Shown: one piece after another, positions 1,723-37,477 of the stretch
How positions within the stretch are numbered: position 1 is the first letter of the stretch
Layout of the letters: each line of letters begins with the position of its first letter
From: Candidatus Cloacimonadales bacterium
GTDB lineage: Bacteria; Cloacimonadota; Cloacimonadia; Cloacimonadales; DAONDQ01
DNA length: 64,000 nt
Assembly: GCA_963662275.1 (NCBI GenBank)
Contig: OY759316.1
Coordinates: 2,848,001 to 2,912,000, forward strand
Direction: 5' to 3'
Position numbers and translations under genes: made by a program
The notes under the pieces: model-generated
Database searches by the model: none
What the model saw: only the letters and a program-made list of their open reading frames with translations
Told to the model about the DNA's origin: nothing

Positions 1723-4700
1723 ATGAATCCGTTGAAGAAAATTCTGATGCTCATGTTAATATTGAGCACAGTTGCGTCTATCATGGCAACCACCGTCACA
1801 ATTGGGACGGGGACATCATCTCAATATTATCCGATAGACAGGCTTTACAACTACAGTGCAGCGGAAATTGTCTATCTGCAGAGTGAGATTGGCATGTCAG
1901 GAAGTATTAATCGTCTTGCTTTTCAAAAAGTGTCTGGCACTGATATTAATCCTATCCTCGATGTTTCAATCTATATGAAGCAAACTACTGCCACAACCCT
2001 AGCTACGGGTGATTACTCCACTGCTGATTATACATTAGTCTACACTGGACCATTCACCAATACTGCAACAACCGGATGGATGGAAGTAACTCTCACAACA
2101 CCATACACATATTCTAATACTCAGAGTTTGTCCATTCTTGTGGTGAAAGGATTTCAGCAATGGACATCCTCTTGTCCTTATTGGGGCTATACGGCAACTA
2201 CAGATAGCAAATTTAGATATGATTATGATGATGATGCTGCTCCAACAACGCTAACACAATCTCTTAATCGACCGAATATCCAGTTGAACATCGTACCTTT
2301 GGAAGGTCCTGCAGTATTTGCTATGAGTCATAGCGCGATCAATTTCGGAACTTGCTTCATTAATGTGACTACATCAGCAACGACTGTCACTGTTTCCAAT
2401 AATGGTGGAACCCCGATGCATATCACTTCAGCCATACTTGGTGGTGCAAACGCAAGTGTTTTCACTAAAACTGATACTAACACTTATCCGGTTACACTTG
2501 CTGCCGGCGGAAGTATGAGTTTTACCGTGTCTTTCCTGCCACTTCTCGCACAACAATATAATGCTACCGTAACAGTCACTGATGATCTCGCACGTACACC
2601 TCATATACTCACTTTGACAGGTTTAGGTTTTGATAACAACATCACAACTTTCCCCTATGTCAACAGTTTCGATGAAACTGCTTTTCCACCGATTGGGTGG
2701 ACAAATCAAAGAATCGTAGGTACCTATACACCCGGTATCTGGGCAGGTTCAGCAACTGGTGTTAATCCTCCCTGCACACCGCACAGCGGTACGACAATGG
2801 CGTATTATAACAGTTACTCAATATCCGCAAACGTCCACACTGTTCTCTCAACGCCACCATTAACGCTTCCCGGAAATAACTACCGAGTTTCTTTCTGGAT
2901 GTATCGTGATATAAGTACTGCGTATAACACACCCAAATATAGCGATGAAGGTATCAGTGCCTGGTTTGGTACATCTCCGACTGATACTACTTTAGCTGTT
3001 AACTTAGGTTTTATACCACGCGATGCTGTTTTTGCACCTGTTGTAGCAGCCAATGGCTGGTACAAATATGGATTTAATTTTCCTGCAAATTCAGCAGGAG
3101 CTGCTAAATATGTGATTTTAAAAGTTAAAAGTCAATTTGGTAACAACATATTCCTGGATGATGTAACCATCGAATTGCAGCCAACAGGCGTACCCTTGCC
3201 TGCAATGGTTTCATCACCAGCAAATAATGTTATTGATCAGTTCCCAACAATCAGCTTGAATTGGCTGCCTGATGGAACTGGTCCGGCAACCTTGGGATAC
3301 CGTTTATCCTTCGGAACAGACAATCCACCCACAAACGTACTGAATAATAGCGATGTTGCTCTAGTTGCTACTTATACACCAACCTTGCAATTTGGTACAA
3401 CGTACTATTGGAAGGTTGTACCTTATAATGCTCTTGGTAATGCAACCGATTGTCCGATTTGGACATTCACAACTATGGCAGACCCAACTGTGACTACTTT
3501 CCCTTATCTTCAGAACTTTGATAGCGTCACAATTCCTGCCATCCCTGTGGGTTGGTCAAAAATGATAGTATCATCCAGTACAGCGGCTATTACCACGAGT
3601 ACATCTACTCCTAACTCTGCACCGAATAATGTTTTAATAAGCAATTCCGGTGATGCAAATGCAAATGTGGTTCTTGTTTCACCTCCAACCCCTAATGTGG
3701 GTTTGACCCGAATTCGTTTCTGGGCAAAAGGTGCAGCAAATTACGTACTATTAGTGGGAACAGTTACAAATCCCGCAGATCCAACATCATTCTCGGAATT
3801 CCAGACAATTAATCTAACTGCCACATATGCCGAGTACTCGGTTTCTTTCGCCGGCTATGCAGGTCAAGCTCATTATATTGGTTTTAAACATGGACTTGGC
3901 ACAGCATATCAAAGCATCTACCTTGATGACTTCTCTTGGCTCTTGATTCCTACAGGTCCTCAGGTGGAAGTGAATGTGACTAATCTTGCTTACGGTGATA
4001 TTTATAATAATTCCACACCTGTTCGAGTTGTTCAGATAAATAATTCAGGTTTAGCAGATCTCAGCTTTACTGTTGCTACATCTGGACAAACAGTAACAAC
4101 GAACTTAACAGGTACTCAAACGCTTACACCTGGTTCTTCCGTGTCTTGTAATGTGACACTTCACCCGATAGCTGAAGGTGCCTTAACAGGTTCAATTACA
4201 ATCAACTCGAATGATCCACTGACACCGGCTCTTCTAATACCTCTGTCTGCAACAGTGCTTCCTGCACTTGCTCCCGGTTTGATAGAAGTAGGGAACGGGT
4301 CTCTTGTTGAAATAAGTCTTCCTGTCGAACCATATTACAATCATAGTTTTTCTCAAACCATTTATTTGCAAACTGAATTGAATCAGCCAAATAGCAGTAT
4401 CAATTCAATTTTCTATAAATTCAATGGTGCAAGTGCATGGTCTGATACAATGCTAGTATATTTGGGACAAACAACTCGTTCTTCTTTCACAAGCACAACT
4501 GATTATGTTCCAGCAACTGAATTAACACTCGTTTATTCTGGATTACTGACTGTCACGGCTGAGGCAGGTTGGGTTGAAATTCCTCTTGATACCCCTTATA
4601 CTTATGACAACGTCTCTAATCTGGTTGTATGTATCGACAAAGATACACCTTATCATCCAAATGCGAATGATTTCTACTGCGCTGCTGTAACAACAAATCG

Positions 4701-15404: not shown

Positions 15405-15535
15405 TGGCTATGCTTCTGCTGGAACGCTTAATTCATTAGGCTGATTTCGAAGTTCGATGTGCGAAGTACGAAGTTCGAAGTTGCAGATGCATAGCCGGTT
15501 GAAAACGGCGTTCCAACCGCGTAAATGCGGAGCTA
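15405..15535 (+). repeat. Uninterrupted copy of a dispersed palindromic intergenic repeat; empty-site homolog of the IS110 insertion
   Basis: ggaacgcttaattcattaggctgatttcgaagttcg...gcagatgcatagccggttgaaaacggcgttcc...gcgtaaatgcggagc aligns in reverse complement to 35021-35153 plus 36895-36917. Confidence 0.85.
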
Positions 15536-33265: not shown

Positions 33266-34943
33266 ATATGCGGTTGATTTTCCTATATGTAATCCGTTTT
33301 GGTATCAGGGCTTTCTCACCCAGTCGCATTAGCTTGTTTTCCTCATAATCACTGAAGTTACCTTCATACCATTTGACAGTACTATCGCCTTCGAAAGCAA
33401 GGATATGGGAGCAAACTCTATCCAGGAAATAGCGGTCATGGCTGATTACCACAGCACACCCTGCGAATTCCAGCAATGCTTCTTCTAAAGCATGGATTGT
33501 ATAAACATCCAGGTCATTAGTGGGTTCGTCCAACAGCAGGACATTGCCTCCAGTCTGCAAGGTCAGAGCCAGGTATGCACGATTCTTTTCTCCACCGCTA
33601 AGGACATTGACCGGCTTGATATGTTCACGTGAAGTAAAGTTGAATTTGCTGAGATACTCACGAACATTGATTTCCCTATCTCCCAGCTTCATTATGTCTC
33701 TTCCTTCACCGATCAGGTCAAGCAATGATTTTGTTTCATCCATCAACCTGGACTGATCCACATAGGAGAACTTCACCGTCTCACCGATAGTGAAAGACCC
33801 GCTATCCGGCTGTATTCTTCCCAGGATCATGTTGAAGAGAGTTGTTTTGCCAGCACCATTAGCTCCGATGACTCCGATGATACCACCGGCAGGTAGGTTG
33901 AATTCCAGGTTTTCATAGAGCAGCTTATCACCAAAGGCTTTGGAGATACCGTTTGCTTTGATGACATTATGACCCAGGTGCGGTCCCTTAGGGATGATCA
34001 TCTGGTCAGTGGTGTTTTCCCGTTTATATTCTGCAGAAGCCATCTTTTCATAGTTCACGATCCTGGCTTTGCTCTTTGCCTGGCGTGCTTTAGGACTACT
34101 GCGAATCCATTCCAATTCCTCTGCCAGGGCTTTCTGGCGTTTGCTTTCGCCTTTGGTCTCAATCGCAAGCCTGGCTTGTTTCTGTTCCAGCCAGGAGGAA
34201 TAGTTACCCTGGTAAGGTATGCCCTCTCCCCTGTCCAATTCCAATATCCAGCCAGCCACGTTATCGAGGAAATACCTGTCATGGGTAATGGCAATGACTG
34301 TGCCTTTGTAATTGAGAAGATAGTGCTCCAGCCACAGGATCATCTCAGCATCCAAGTGGTTGGTGGGTTCATCTAATAGCAATATATCCGGCTCCTGCAG
34401 CAGGAGACGACACAGGGATACCCGACGCCTTTCACCACCGGAGATCACACTGACATCCATATTGGGCGGAGGACAACGCAAAGCTTCCATCGCCTGTTCC
34501 AAGCGGCTGTCCAAATCCCAGGCATTGGTGGCATCCAACTTATCCTGCACCTTGCCCTGCTCCTCCAGGAGGTTATTCATCTCATCGTCACTCATGGGTT
34601 CGCTGAATTGATTATTTATCTCTTCATACCTGGCAAGTAATGCAACTACATCCGCTACAGCCTCACTGACTGTTTCCAGCACTGTCTTACCGGGTGTAAG
34701 CTGAGGATCTTGTTCCAAATAACCGATTGTGTAACCTTTAGACATCGACACCTCACCGAGGTAGTCCTTATCAATACCTGCCATGATCTTAAGCAGGGAG
34801 CTTTTACCTGAACCATTCAGACCCACTACTCCTATCTTTGCCCCATAATAATAACCAAGATAGATATCCTTAAGAATCTGTTTATTACCATCCACTACTT
34901 TACCGATGCCGTTCATCGAATAGATTACTTTATTCTCTTCCAT
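33264..34943 (-). CDS. ettA: Energy-dependent translational throttle protein EttA (ABC-F)
   Basis: GAKIGVVGLNGSGKS, SGGERRRV, linker ELEWIRSSPKARQAKSKAR, two ABC domains, 559 aa. Confidence 0.95.
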   Translation of the reverse strand: MEENKVIYSMNGIGKVVDGNKQILKDIYLGYYYGAKIGVVGLNGSGKSSLLKIMAGIDKDYLGEVSMSKGYTIGYLEQDPQLTPGKTVLETVSEAVADVVALLARYEEINNQFSEPMSDDEMNNLLEEQGKVQDKLDATNAWDLDSRLEQAMEALRCPPPNMDVSVISGGERRRVSLCRLLLQEPDILLLDEPTNHLDAEMILWLEHYLLNYKGTVIAITHDRYFLDNVAGWILELDRGEGIPYQGNYSSWLEQKQARLAIETKGESKRQKALAEELEWIRSSPKARQAKSKARIVNYEKMASAEYKRENTTDQMIIPKGPHLGHNVIKANGISKAFGDKLLYENLEFNLPAGGIIGVIGANGAGKTTLFNMILGRIQPDSGSFTIGETVKFSYVDQSRLMDETKSLLDLIGEGRDIMKLGDREINVREYLSKFNFTSREHIKPVNVLSGGEKNRAYLALTLQTGGNVLLLDEPTNDLDVYTIHALEEALLEFAGCAVVISHDRYFLDRVCSHILAFEGDSTVKWYEGNFSDYEENKLMRLGEKALIPKRITYRKINRI

Positions 34944-35020
34944 GCGTTCCTCTGTATCTTATTGTAGATTAAATTGGAGCATTTTTGGATATGGGTTTGG
35001 TGTCAAGATGCAAACAAGTG

Positions 35021-35153
35021 GCTCCGCATTTACGCTGTTGGGTGCTGCTGACTTCAGCCGGTTTGGAACGCTGTTTTCTATTGGAACGTTGTTTTCAAAT
35101 GGCTATGCATCTGAAACTTCGAACTTCGTACTTCGTATATCGCACTTCGAAAT
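35021..35153 (-). repeat. Left part of the dispersed repeat split by IS110; the remainder is at 36895-36917
   Basis: ttggaacgttgttttcaaatggctatgcatctgaaacttcgaacttcgtacttcgtatatcgcacttcgaaat matches the reverse complement of 15444-15516. Confidence 0.85.
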
Positions 35154-35238
35154 AGCTTACTATAGGAAGGTTAGAAAATTAAGGTAGAAAAACCTCCCTC
35201 GTTGATATACATAGATCAAATCAACAAAGGAGGTAACA

Positions 35239-36516
35239 ATGATTACCACATCAAAATCTAACCCAAAGAGGTTTTTTGTCAACTCAGAAATGATGCTTGT
35301 TGGCATTGATATCAGCAAGCACAAACACAGTGTGTATTTTTGTGATTTTACAGGTGAACGGAAGCGTAAGCCATTTTTTATTACAAACAATCATGATGGT
35401 TTTCAGTATCTGCTAAAAGAAGCAGAACAGCAAAAGCGTTTGTGGAATCTGAACGAGATTGTATTTGGAATGGAACCAACAGGTTCATATGTAAAGCCAC
35501 TCCAGTACTTCTTGGAAGAACGCTGCTATCAAATCCAAAGCATCAACCCATTACACACTAAAAGATGGAAGGATATTGAAGATAATCATCCATCCAAGAA
35601 TGATTTGAAAGACAGTATTATCATTACCTCTCTGTTAAGAATGGGCAAGAGCATCCATCATCGGAGACCTGAAGGTGTTTTCGCGGAGTTGAACAACTAT
35701 GCAGCTTATTATCACCAGTTAATCACAGATATTCGCAGGCAGAGGAACTATCTGGAAGCCTCTTATGCCTGTTACTTTCCTGAATTGAGTAACTTTTTCA
35801 AATTTAACAGTACGGGAGTAATGTATATCATGGAGTGTTTTCCTCTTCCTCAGGATATCGTAAATGCAGGATATGAGAATTTTCTGAAGATTATGAAAAC
35901 AAAAAGCAAAGGGTGCATAGCTACAGAGAAGCTTCACAGTTTATATCAGGTATCTCTAACAAGTATTGGCATGAGTCAGGGAGCGGATAGTGCGAGAGTG
36001 GTCATAAATGCGATCTATGAGGATATCAGCTATAAACAATACCATCTCAAACAAATCAAAACAGCAATCATGACATGTGTAGATAAAATCAGTTATGGAT
36101 CGTTATTGGTGACAATACCTGGTTTGAGTAAAGTATCAGTGGGGTTAATTCTGGCGGAGACTGGAGATATCAATCAATATGGTCGATATCAGGATTTAGT
36201 CAAACTTGCCGGATTGAGTTTAAAACACAATCAATCAGGAGAATACCATGGGCAATATCATATCTCTAAGGTAGGAAGAGTAAGGTTGCGAAGGATCTTG
36301 TATATGCTTACTCTGGAAATGATTATAAACAATCAATTAATCAATCAGATATATAATTATCAAGTAAAAAAGCGAGGTAATAACAAGGTCAAAACTATCG
36401 TTTCTTTGAGCAGTAAATTACTGGGAATCATGTACTCAATGGTTAAATATGAAAGGTCGTTTGATCCTGAACAGCGAAAGCTATATGCAGGTTATTTAAC
36501 TGAAAATAATCAGTGA
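35239..36516 (+). CDS. IS110-family transposase/recombinase
   Basis: DEDD residues in VGIDISK, GMEPTG and KNDLKDS; C-terminal TIPG..., LAGL....QSG....HISKVG..RLR; AAGGAGG Shine-Dalgarno. Confidence 0.95.
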   Translation: MITTSKSNPKRFFVNSEMMLVGIDISKHKHSVYFCDFTGERKRKPFFITNNHDGFQYLLKEAEQQKRLWNLNEIVFGMEPTGSYVKPLQYFLEERCYQIQSINPLHTKRWKDIEDNHPSKNDLKDSIIITSLLRMGKSIHHRRPEGVFAELNNYAAYYHQLITDIRRQRNYLEASYACYFPELSNFFKFNSTGVMYIMECFPLPQDIVNAGYENFLKIMKTKSKGCIATEKLHSLYQVSLTSIGMSQGADSARVVINAIYEDISYKQYHLKQIKTAIMTCVDKISYGSLLVTIPGLSKVSVGLILAETGDINQYGRYQDLVKLAGLSLKHNQSGEYHGQYHISKVGRVRLRRILYMLTLEMIINNQLINQIYNYQVKKRGNNKVKTIVSLSSKLLGIMYSMVKYERSFDPEQRKLYAGYLTENNQ

Positions 36517-36559
36517 GCCAAGAAAAAAAAGTAGTCAAAAAATAATGGAGGTGTTTAGA

Positions 36560-36732
36560 TTGGTTCACTCGCCGGATGATGTAGTCATTAGGCACTAAGG
36601 CTTGTTTACAAGACCTTCTACCATAGCTCATTATAGCACACCGGCGGGTATTATCTCAGATAGGATAAAGTAAGAATAGGATACCATCAGAAGGTAATCC
36701 AGTATATCAGCAAGATCGGGATGTAGAACCAA
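36560..36732 (+). ncRNA. Predicted bridge/seek RNA of the IS110 element
   Basis: Manual fold: basal stem TTGGTTC/GAACCAA closes two stem-internal loop-hairpin arms; loops contain CATTAGGC, ATAGC, AGTAAG and TATATCAGC matching the target and donor junctions. Confidence 0.75.
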
Positions 36733-36791
36733 GAGAGCTTTGATAAGTAATATTCGATTTAATCATAGAATTCAGATCGAAAATCAGCGTC

Positions 36792-36846
36792 TCTGGAACC
36801 CTGCAATGACGCTTCGGTACCCTACGCGTCATTGCAGGGTTCCAGA
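36792..36846. repeat. Perfect 21-bp inverted repeat inside the IS110 right end
   Basis: TCTGGAACCCTGCAATGACGC - 13 nt loop - GCGTCATTGCAGGGTTCCAGA. Confidence 0.9.
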
Positions 36847-37006
36847 AAGCCAAGTACTATGAATATATTATAATATATAACTATCTAACTATATCAGCCT
36901 AATAAATAAAGCGTTCCGGCCTTTGAAAAGAGTGATCCAAGTCCCTAATCTGTTAAAATAGCTCTTCTCTGCAATCCCTAAAGTCTACTAGCTATACTCT
37001 ATAAGC

Positions 37007-37044
37007 TTCTGCCATGCCAATTCGTAATTCGTAATTCTTAATTT
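37007..37044 (-). repeat. 7-mer (TTCGTAA-type) array after TCTGCCA
   Basis: tctgccatgccaa ttcgtaa ttcgtaa ttcttaa tt. Confidence 0.65.
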
Positions 37045-37232
37045 ATCCCCCCATGACACATAATTTCCTCAGCAGTTTGAACTTATCTCCATCCAATTTA
37101 CCAGTACACCACGCTTTTTTTAGCAAAAGAGCACAATAGATAACCTCTTAAACCCTCTCATAATCCTCTTAATTAATACCAGGTTATATCCAAGTTTAAT
37201 CTCAGTCTAATCCTATCTCATACCAATTTCTC

Positions 37233-37298
37233 GAAACAGGAATGAAACAGGTATGAAACAGGTATGAAACAGGATTGAAACAGGTATGAAATAGGATT
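37233..37298 (+). repeat. 6 x 11-mer tandem array
   Basis: gaaacaggaat gaaacaggtat gaaacaggtat gaaacaggatt gaaacaggtat gaaataggatt. Confidence 0.9.
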
Positions 37299-37477
37299 GA
37301 ACTTGGTACAATACATGTGGACTGAACGCTGTTTCCAAACGGCTATACAATATTTACACTTGACTTTGGGCAATTGTTGGAACATTATTTTCAAACGGTT
37401 ATGCTGGTTTCACTGGCTAGTACTTCAAATACCAGCATTATCCTGTTATTTTTAAAATATTATAGAAGCATCTATAT

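Follow-up and report, generated by a model that had tools for sequence, protein, structure and literature searches.

Bridge recombinases are under development as programmable tools for DNA insertion, excision and inversion. Guide RNAs of this kind, called bridge RNAs or seekRNAs, are established for the IS110 as well as the IS1111 group. Elements of the IS1111 group carry their bridge RNA in the right end, where it has been predicted for 93% of the IS1111 elements in ISfinder (Durrant et al. 2024, PMC11208160); their subterminal inverted repeats are given as 7-17 bp in the same work. IS1111-type transposases measure 330-350 aa and those of the IS110 subgroup reach up to 395-455 aa (PMC11187229). 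The order in which matches to the top strand and to the bottom strand occur is reversed in IS1111-type relative to IS110-type seekRNAs (Siddiquee et al. 2024, PMC11187229), and IS110-type clades with a downstream non-coding region are already mentioned in section 6 of that paper. A handshake rule has been described for the guides of bridge RNAs (PMC11208158).

The locus considered here lies in a stretch of 64,000 nucleotides of a Candidatus Cloacimonadales bacterium (contig OY759316.1, assembly GCA_963662275.1), called the window in what follows. Positions 36560-36732 very probably specify a bridge RNA (seekRNA) that belongs to an active insertion sequence of the IS110 family. The boundaries of the element, the predicted fold, the matches between guides and sites, and their co-variation in an ortholog can be read from the sequence and from comparisons. 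The coordinates of all features are collected in Table 1.

Table 1. Features of the insertion sequence in window coordinates, with the counterparts of the guides in the ortholog
Feature	Position	Strand	Description	Comparison with the ortholog
Left flank AAAT	35150-53	+	complement of the right target	
Left AG core	35154..35155	+	CT on the guide-top strand; boundary shared by six copies; uninterrupted paralogue with one AG	
Left end	35156..35165	+	CTTAC 35156-60, complement of the left-donor half-site GTAAG	
Subterminal inverted repeat, 5 bp	TATAG 35161-65 with CTATA 36889-93	+	flanks the 9-bp donor core region	
Left-end hairpin	35192..35233	+	CCTCCC paired with the GGAGG ribosome-binding site of the transposase gene; MFE and centroid folds, z only -1.4	
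Transposase/recombinase gene	35239..36516	+	425 aa; DEDD RuvC-like domain and Tnp domain	
Predicted bridge RNA (seekRNA)	36560..36732	+	closing stem P1, target-binding arm and donor-binding arm	
P1	36560-66/36726-32	+	closing stem	
P2	36567-75/36641-49	+	arm-1 outer stem	
Left target guide AUUAGGC	36587..36593	+	equals left target and first core base, guide-top strand	window CAUUAGGC, ortholog CCUAUGUU; ortholog left target CTATG
P3	36597-605/36608-17	+	arm-1 hairpin; one bulged A	
Right target guide CAUAG	36622-26 (feature 36622..36628)	+	complementary to core CT and AT(G)	window CAUAGC, ortholog UGUAGC; ortholog right target ACA
P4	36652-61/36715-23	+	arm-2 outer stem; one bulged A	
Left donor guide AGUAAG	36669..36674	+	sequence of the left donor half-site	window AGUAAG, ortholog GGCAAG; matches the ortholog's CTTGC left end
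P5	36679-85/36693-700	+	arm-2 hairpin; one bulge	
Right donor guide UAUAUCAGC	36703..36711	+	complementary to last left-donor base, core CT and right donor GATATA; 9-nt match	window UAUAUCAGC, ortholog CAUAUCAGC; nearly unchanged, like the right end; 8-nt match in ortholog
Long hairpin	36792..36846	.	perfect 21-bp stem 36792-812/36826-846, 13-nt loop TTCGGTACCCTAC; between RNA and right end	
Right end	36889..36897	+	CTATA (subterminal repeat), TC (complement of right donor GA), right AG core 36896-97	
Right flank CCTAATA	36898..36904	+	complement of the window copy's left target TATTAGG	

The insertion sequence within the window has a length of 1742 bp, with one AG core counted. Six full copies, 100% identical, are present in the host genome, which consists of one 4.38-Mb contig. 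Their comparison places the left boundary at AG followed by CTTACTATAG and the right boundary at CTATATC followed by AG and then CCTAA-like flanks, and it confirmed the ends reconstructed in the original prediction. Because the sequence common to the copies begins directly after AG and finishes with AG, the element extends from 35154/56 to 36895/97. Its non-coding ends comprise 85 bp on the left (core to start codon) and 381 bp on the right (stop codon to core). A separate element contig of 1747 nt was found in two public runs, at a depth about 5 times that of the flanks. An uninterrupted paralogue elsewhere in the genome reads cgaaat-AG-cctaataaat, contains a single AG and is identical to the two flanks of the window copy. 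The second uninterrupted site, again with a single AG, is a tandem repeat of the target of copy L004 and lies 30 nt downstream of that copy. From the six identical copies, the sharp shared boundaries, the own contig and the uninterrupted paralogues with a single AG, the element is judged to be mobile and recent. Joints representing the empty site or the circle junction were not seen among the contigs of four runs over 34700-37350, although contigs cannot show absence. An orthologous empty site was sought in a genome of the same genus, where the neighbouring ABC-F gene is kept (82% identity) and the intergenic region is not conserved.

Two of the six copies, the window copy (flanks 35085-35153 and 36898-36925) and L002, are located inside a dispersed intergenic repeat. 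In this repeat, tandem ACTTCG(N) units precede AAATAGCCTAATAAAT(T/A)AAGCGTTCC; it is present in about a dozen partial copies. It also occurs near positions 4123162, 1218105 and 2863444 of the host contig (G000:C1), the last of these being window 15444-15496. One uninterrupted copy holds the exact target, and another has an extra C at the insertion point. At window 37192-37350 all four runs show a summed contig depth 10-80 times that in adjacent bins; the raised depth, together with many short contigs of 90-95% likeness, indicates a highly repeated sequence just downstream of the element. Loose contig ends were observed at window 36585 and 36413 (runs X1, X3, X4 and X5).

The transposase gene encodes a protein with matches to the Pfam families PF01548 (N-terminal DEDD domain, 4e-26) and PF02371 (C-terminal Tnp domain, 9.4e-16). 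The NCBIfam model NF033542, "IS110 family RNA-guided transposase", gave 177.2 bits against a cut-off of 140. With phmmer, the protein aligned over parts to the IS621 chain 8wt6_A (E 1.3e-11), and to the ISCro4 recombinase with E 6e-12. Counted along the alignment, D24, D122, D125 and S333 correspond to D11, D102, D105 and S241 of IS621 (chain numbering +2). E79, in the sequence MEPTG, falls opposite the IEATG motif and is regarded as equivalent to IS621 E60, a position taken without counting. Across 18 relatives D24, E79, D125 and the pair S333-G334 are invariant, and D122 is nearly so. The two protein hallmarks of the IS110 family are thus present: a DEDD domain with four acidic residues, and a Tnp domain with the catalytic serine in an SG motif. 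The closest database proteins (P0001 and P0002) share 56% and 49% identity and all others at most 34%, which makes the lineage rare in the protein database searched. The nearest annotated proteins are "IS110 family transposases" of Bacillota, about 400-430 aa long and 27-33% identical. Among 232 genomes of the phylum, 11 gave a protein match, the window's own included, and a close relative was present in one other only; a scan of metagenome contigs returned a single distant relative (24% identity) and no close ones. Upstream of the gene, the predicted left-end hairpin, which covers the ribosome-binding site, would keep read-through transcripts from being translated. Pairs of the CCTCC...GGAGG kind are also visible by eye in a relative with 31% protein identity (L035).

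The sequence strings from which the RNA had been drawn are present base for base: TTGGTTC at 36560-66, GAACCAA at 36726-32, CATAGC at 36622-27, CATTAGGC at 36586-93, AGTAAG at 36669-74 and TATATCAGC at 36703-11. The predicted architecture is a closing stem and two arms that each hold an internal loop, all 41 pairs over the five stems being canonical or G.U. The transcript is predicted on the + strand, since the G.U pairs of P2 and P4 would become A-C mismatches on the other strand. The computed MFE fold of 36540-36790 contains P1, P2 and P3 as well as the larger part of P5, but its outer portion of arm 2 departs from the original prediction. This fold has a z-score of -2.5, and one of 200 shuffles folded equally well. 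A structured two-loop non-coding RNA in one end, as is typical of the IS110 family, is predicted, and its fold is kept in the ortholog. A permissive Rfam search of 34900-37100 returned no bridge-RNA family. Its sole matches were to miRNAs on the long hairpin, which were rejected as due to chance, all below the gathering scores. No intrinsic terminator was found after the RNA or after the long hairpin. Among the negative results counted against the bridge-RNA reading, no promoter-like site was seen directly upstream of the RNA, and no RNA run holding the element was present among the public sequencing runs listed.

The agreement between guides and sites was scored as the exact, core-touching matches between a loop strand and a site, without credit for G.T wobble, and 200,000 random CT-centred sites of the same genome served as background. 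Against arm 1 the six real targets scored 13, 7, 13, 10, 12 and 11, values equalled or exceeded by fractions of 2e-4, 0.21, 2e-4, 0.009, 8e-4 and 0.003 of the random sites in the same order; the random sites themselves had a median of 5 and a 99th percentile of 9. The joined ends, which form the donor, scored 15 against arm 2 (random fraction about 7e-5). Cross-controls stayed at background, with 6-8 for the targets against arm 2 and 5 for the donor against arm 1. The guides match their sites far better than expected by chance, with each arm specific to its own site. The left target guide alone matches exactly over 7, 6, 6, 7 and 4 nt at five sites and, with one G.T wobble, at the sixth. It had been proposed that other insertions of the element should share flanks that fit the arm-1 loop. 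This was largely borne out, as five of the six sites reach scores found in only the highest-ranking 1% of random CT sites, the sixth remaining at background unless the wobble is credited. At this weak site (score 7, flank CTTAAT) one position departs from the guide, an RNA G facing a DNA T. A second near-copy, TATAGC at 36632-37 in the 3' strand of arm 1, raised the score of one site by one base. Since this near-copy does not change with the target in the ortholog, CAUAG at 36622-26 is taken as the guide. The genome also contains 26 unoccupied TTAGGCTAT sites. The left donor guide does not pair with the core, and this was counted against the bridge-RNA reading. In the random-site test and the cross-controls, the loop strands match target and donor on both strands at the shared core dinucleotide, a property characteristic of the family.

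A genome scan (one genome per species) with a three-protein query found matches only in the seven copies of one Candidatus Cloacimonadaceae MAG (G095), of the same order as the window genome. The element in this MAG is 53% identical, and six of its seven copies have clean ends. The exception, L025, has an altered left end. It has a diverged transposase gene and a left boundary without the AG-CT of the other copies, and it lies about 3.8 kb from copy L030. On the guide-top strand the target of the ortholog is CTATG-CT-ACA. Its left end reads CTTGC where the window element has CTTAC; the right ends of the two do not differ. On its own sites each RNA reaches scores of 8-13 (7 at the window wobble site), and on those of the other element 6-8. 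Three of the four guides have changed together with their sites, and the fourth is constant along with the constant right end (Table 1); co-variation of the guides with target and donor is supported by this comparison with one ortholog lineage. In L026 and L031, two of the six clean copies, AA replaces AG at the right junction only, the left keeping AG. The AA fits the UU found at the core position of the ortholog's left target guide, a hint that the core base adjoining the left target is supplied by the target. In the public runs with loose contig ends (X1, X3, X4 and X5), contigs agree with the conserved 5' portion of the RNA and change to the ortholog sequence exactly at the left target guide, so that both element types are present in those samples.

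The fold was also compared between the two elements. RNAalifold, run unaided on the two sequences, recovered P2, P3, P4 and P5 with a short extension of P2 and two compensated pairs. On the MAFFT alignment it did not recover P1, which was counted against the bridge-RNA reading. In the register adopted here, P1 of the ortholog pairs TATAGTC with GACGATA through six pairs and one A-G mismatch, with its bases at the positions of the window RNA. Standard pairs fill 91.9% of the pair cells in the model-fitted alignment, and 35-48% once the partners are slid by 1-3 columns. Three compensated pairs are found, one each in P1, P3 and P4, a count reached by 13 of 500 shuffles. The fold is kept, and with two independent lineages its covariation is supportive rather than conclusive. 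In the relative L035, the covariance model gave a match directly after the stop codon (rough E about 0.019), and the MFE fold of this region alone again consists of a closing stem and two arms; the L035 contig does not extend far enough for its flanks to be read. Among the 10 distant loci searched with this model (R1), L035 was the sole plausible match, the others being at noise level. Three Bacillota plasmid loci gave no match with E of 0.1 or less, and 80 viral loci gave nothing convincing (best E 0.24). A conserved 15-nt motif of the RNA had at least 119 exact matches in viral contigs and was dismissed, this number being in line with the chance expectation (own estimate about 100). In L036 and L037 (28-29% identity) the downstream regions share the motifs GTGGCGATCCCGTATTT ... 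GGGCA(A)TGACCC ... GGGAC(C/T)CACA. This motif set suggests a second RNA type in a sister clade.

In a rival reading, arm 1 alone would work as a short target-selecting seekRNA. The RNA would then be processed into pieces, and the arm-2 matches and the closing stem would be unused as parts of one bispecific molecule. Short seekRNAs of 82-96 nt predominate, with only target matches described, in section 9 of Siddiquee et al. (PMC11187229), and in CazIS110-1 a target-loop-only RNA makes up 90.4% of transcripts (bioRxiv 10.1101/2025.10.25.684509). However, excision and integration of CazIS110-1 still required the full-length RNA (bioRxiv 10.1101/2025.10.25.684509). In the present element no match is stronger than that between arm 2 and the donor junction (15 nt, 7e-5), the left end and the left donor guide co-vary, and the closing stem, which unites both arms, recurs in the 31%-identity relative. 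Use of arm 1 alone is accordingly held to be improbable, and one RNA with two arms is preferred.

The long hairpin between this RNA and the right end is a further conserved part of the element. Compared with the ortholog (L026, about 3016-3070), 10 of its 21 pairs have changed on both sides and still pair, and none is broken. The loop T(T/C)CGGTACCCT(A/C)C is nearly invariant and holds the palindrome GGTACC, and the six closing pairs are conserved. No T-run follows the hairpin on either strand, and no copies were found outside the element. As a cis element, it might serve in transcript termination or processing, in loop-to-loop RNA pairing, or as a landing site of the recombinase. The element, its Cloacimonadales relatives and perhaps the Bacillota transposases of about 400-430 aa could tentatively be seen as a separate lineage, defined by a long IS110-type recombinase, a downstream three-way-junction RNA, inverted sites and the extra conserved 21-bp hairpin, but such a grouping is rather doubtful.

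The hairpin has no G.U pairs and could act as DNA, and TATATCAGC forms a direct DNA repeat, being present at 36703-11 and again at the right end (36890-98). Both observations would suit a model in which the repeats of end and target sequences in the right end act as DNA, for example as internal protein-binding copies, the fold being incidental. Such a model explains neither the target half-sites inside the element nor their change with the target of the ortholog. Moreover, compensated changes preserve pairing in the stems of the predicted RNA, whose G.U pairs suit just one strand, and the use of RNA is documented for the family (PMC11208160, PMC11187229). A role of these sequences as DNA sites is very unlikely. 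Least probable of all is a chance resemblance inside some structured 3' untranslated region or terminator that belongs to the transposase gene. In its favour, chance should yield a single match of 6-7 nt between a site of 26 nt and an element of 1.7 kb (about 3 per site by own estimate), and the z-score of the fold is no more than moderate. Against it, the four matches sit in four loop strands in the register of the family, the random fraction is 0.009 or lower for five of six sites and 7e-5 for the donor, each set of matches is specific to its ortholog, no site resembling a terminator was seen, and the ortholog comparison already contradicts it.

Under the preferred reading of a bispecific bridge RNA, the 425-aa DEDD/serine recombinase would bind the RNA. 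The arm-1 loop would pair with both strands of the target (A)TTAGG-CT-AT(G), read opposite the transposase gene, and the arm-2 loop with both strands of the joined ends of the excised circle, (A)GTAAG-CT-GATATA. The element would thus pass through a circular intermediate, and recombination at the shared CT core would insert it, one core copy being left per junction. The strand-exchange chemistry is proposed by analogy with IS621. The literature's default, a joint transcript with the transposase gene that is later processed, is considered probable here because no separate promoter was seen. Over the circle junction of the window element no TTGACA/TATAAT-type pair (at least 8 of 12 matches) was found, and the junction of the ortholog contains weak ones only; this consensus may not be that of the host.

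The handshake rule described for bridge-RNA guides (PMC11208158) appears to apply to these RNAs. CU at 36627-28 may be read as standing at the handshake position; it is complementary to the AG that ends the left donor. For the target-loop CU of the ortholog, pairing would be with the left-donor AG and not with the target TG, and for its donor-loop CA with the target TG and not with the donor AG. In the window RNA, the CU would pair with the donor AG, and with the target GG through one wobble, and the donor-loop CA would pair through C only. Handshake bases would thus be complementary to the non-cognate DNA in three of four cases, which suggests a shared strand-exchange mechanism.

The original reading of the locus as an IS110-family recombinase-RNA pair is supported by both Pfam domains, by NF033542, by the IS621-like loop layout and by the co-variation of the guides. 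Its words "RNA" and "programmable" are to be taken as describing a candidate deduced from DNA sequence. On these grounds, the pair is regarded as a genuine uncharacterised bridge-RNA system of an established family, with a readable guide code. No paper that mentions IS110 in Cloacimonadota was found by full-text search of the collection covered. A catalogued relative of the clade may exist in the table of RNA locations by ISfinder element of Durrant et al. The general picture of how IS110-family elements work is unchanged by this element, which indicates that a long IS110-like recombinase can use an IS1111-like downstream arrangement, in Cloacimonadota. A natural recombinase-RNA pair with guides, target and donor readable from the genome is a ready candidate for testing, and the six natural insertions, the ortholog of different specificity and the clear bases at the handshake position offer a compact, internally controlled start.

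Several described systems resemble the window element in part. ISPpu9 and ISPpu10 of Pseudomonas putida also have AG at both sides and insert into repeated extragenic sequences, and for ISPpu9 a junction promoter is described as absent (PMC12288879). They differ in their unrelated hosts and targets, and the extra small RNAs Asr9 and Ssr9 are theirs (PMC12288879). The IS110-family relatives on Bacillota plasmids have, at all three loci inspected, a downstream gap of about 460-480 nt and an upstream gap of about 170-250 nt, so the longer gap is downstream as in the window. At 27-33% identity they are too divergent for their RNAs to be recognized by the covariance model, and no description of the RNAs of these elements of about 400-430 aa was found in the excerpts of the literature examined.

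IS621 (PDB 8wt6) shares with the window element a DEDD and serine recombinase, a CT core, and an RNA with the target loop ahead of the donor loop. In both, the 5' strand of a loop, with the sequence of left half-site and core, pairs with the bottom strand, and the 3' strand, which complements core and right half-site, with the top strand (PMC11208160); the guide lengths are comparable. The proteins are only distantly related (328 aa in IS621, 425 aa here). The RNA of IS621 lies upstream of the gene, whereas that of the window element lies downstream, with the sites read on the opposite strand relative to the gene. This inversion relative to IS621, put forward in the original prediction, is real, but it has already been published as the arrangement of IS1111-type seekRNAs (PMC11187229). 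All four guides of IS621 pair with the core, whereas the left donor guide of the window element does not reach it.

The IS1111-type seekRNAs of ISEc11, ISKpn4 and ISPa11 lie downstream, as in the window element, and have the same order of strand matches (PMC11187229, PMC11208160). The long non-coding region with its predicted RNA follows the transposase gene, and the match complementary to the top strand lies 5' of the one for the bottom strand: 36587-93 complements the transposase-sense strand, and 36622-26 agrees in sequence with it. Insertion is likewise into a sequence-specific target with no duplication beyond the core. Donor-binding bases, too, are noted for many IS1111 orthologues, in multi-loop structures (Durrant et al., PMC11208160). 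As a difference, both guide pairs of the window RNA are in simple internal loops of two arms with a common closing stem. The transposase of 425 aa is set apart from IS1111 by the published range of 330-350 aa, and the repeat of 5 bp (4-5 bp in the ortholog) compares with 7-17 bp. A very short repeat and a long transposase agree with the IS110 group in the narrow sense, but the region upstream of the gene has only 85 bp, which hold the donor half-site and the ribosome-binding-site hairpin. As read from these features, the element is mixed, IS1111-like in its downstream RNA and reversed strand order, and IS110-like in its long transposase and 5-bp repeat.
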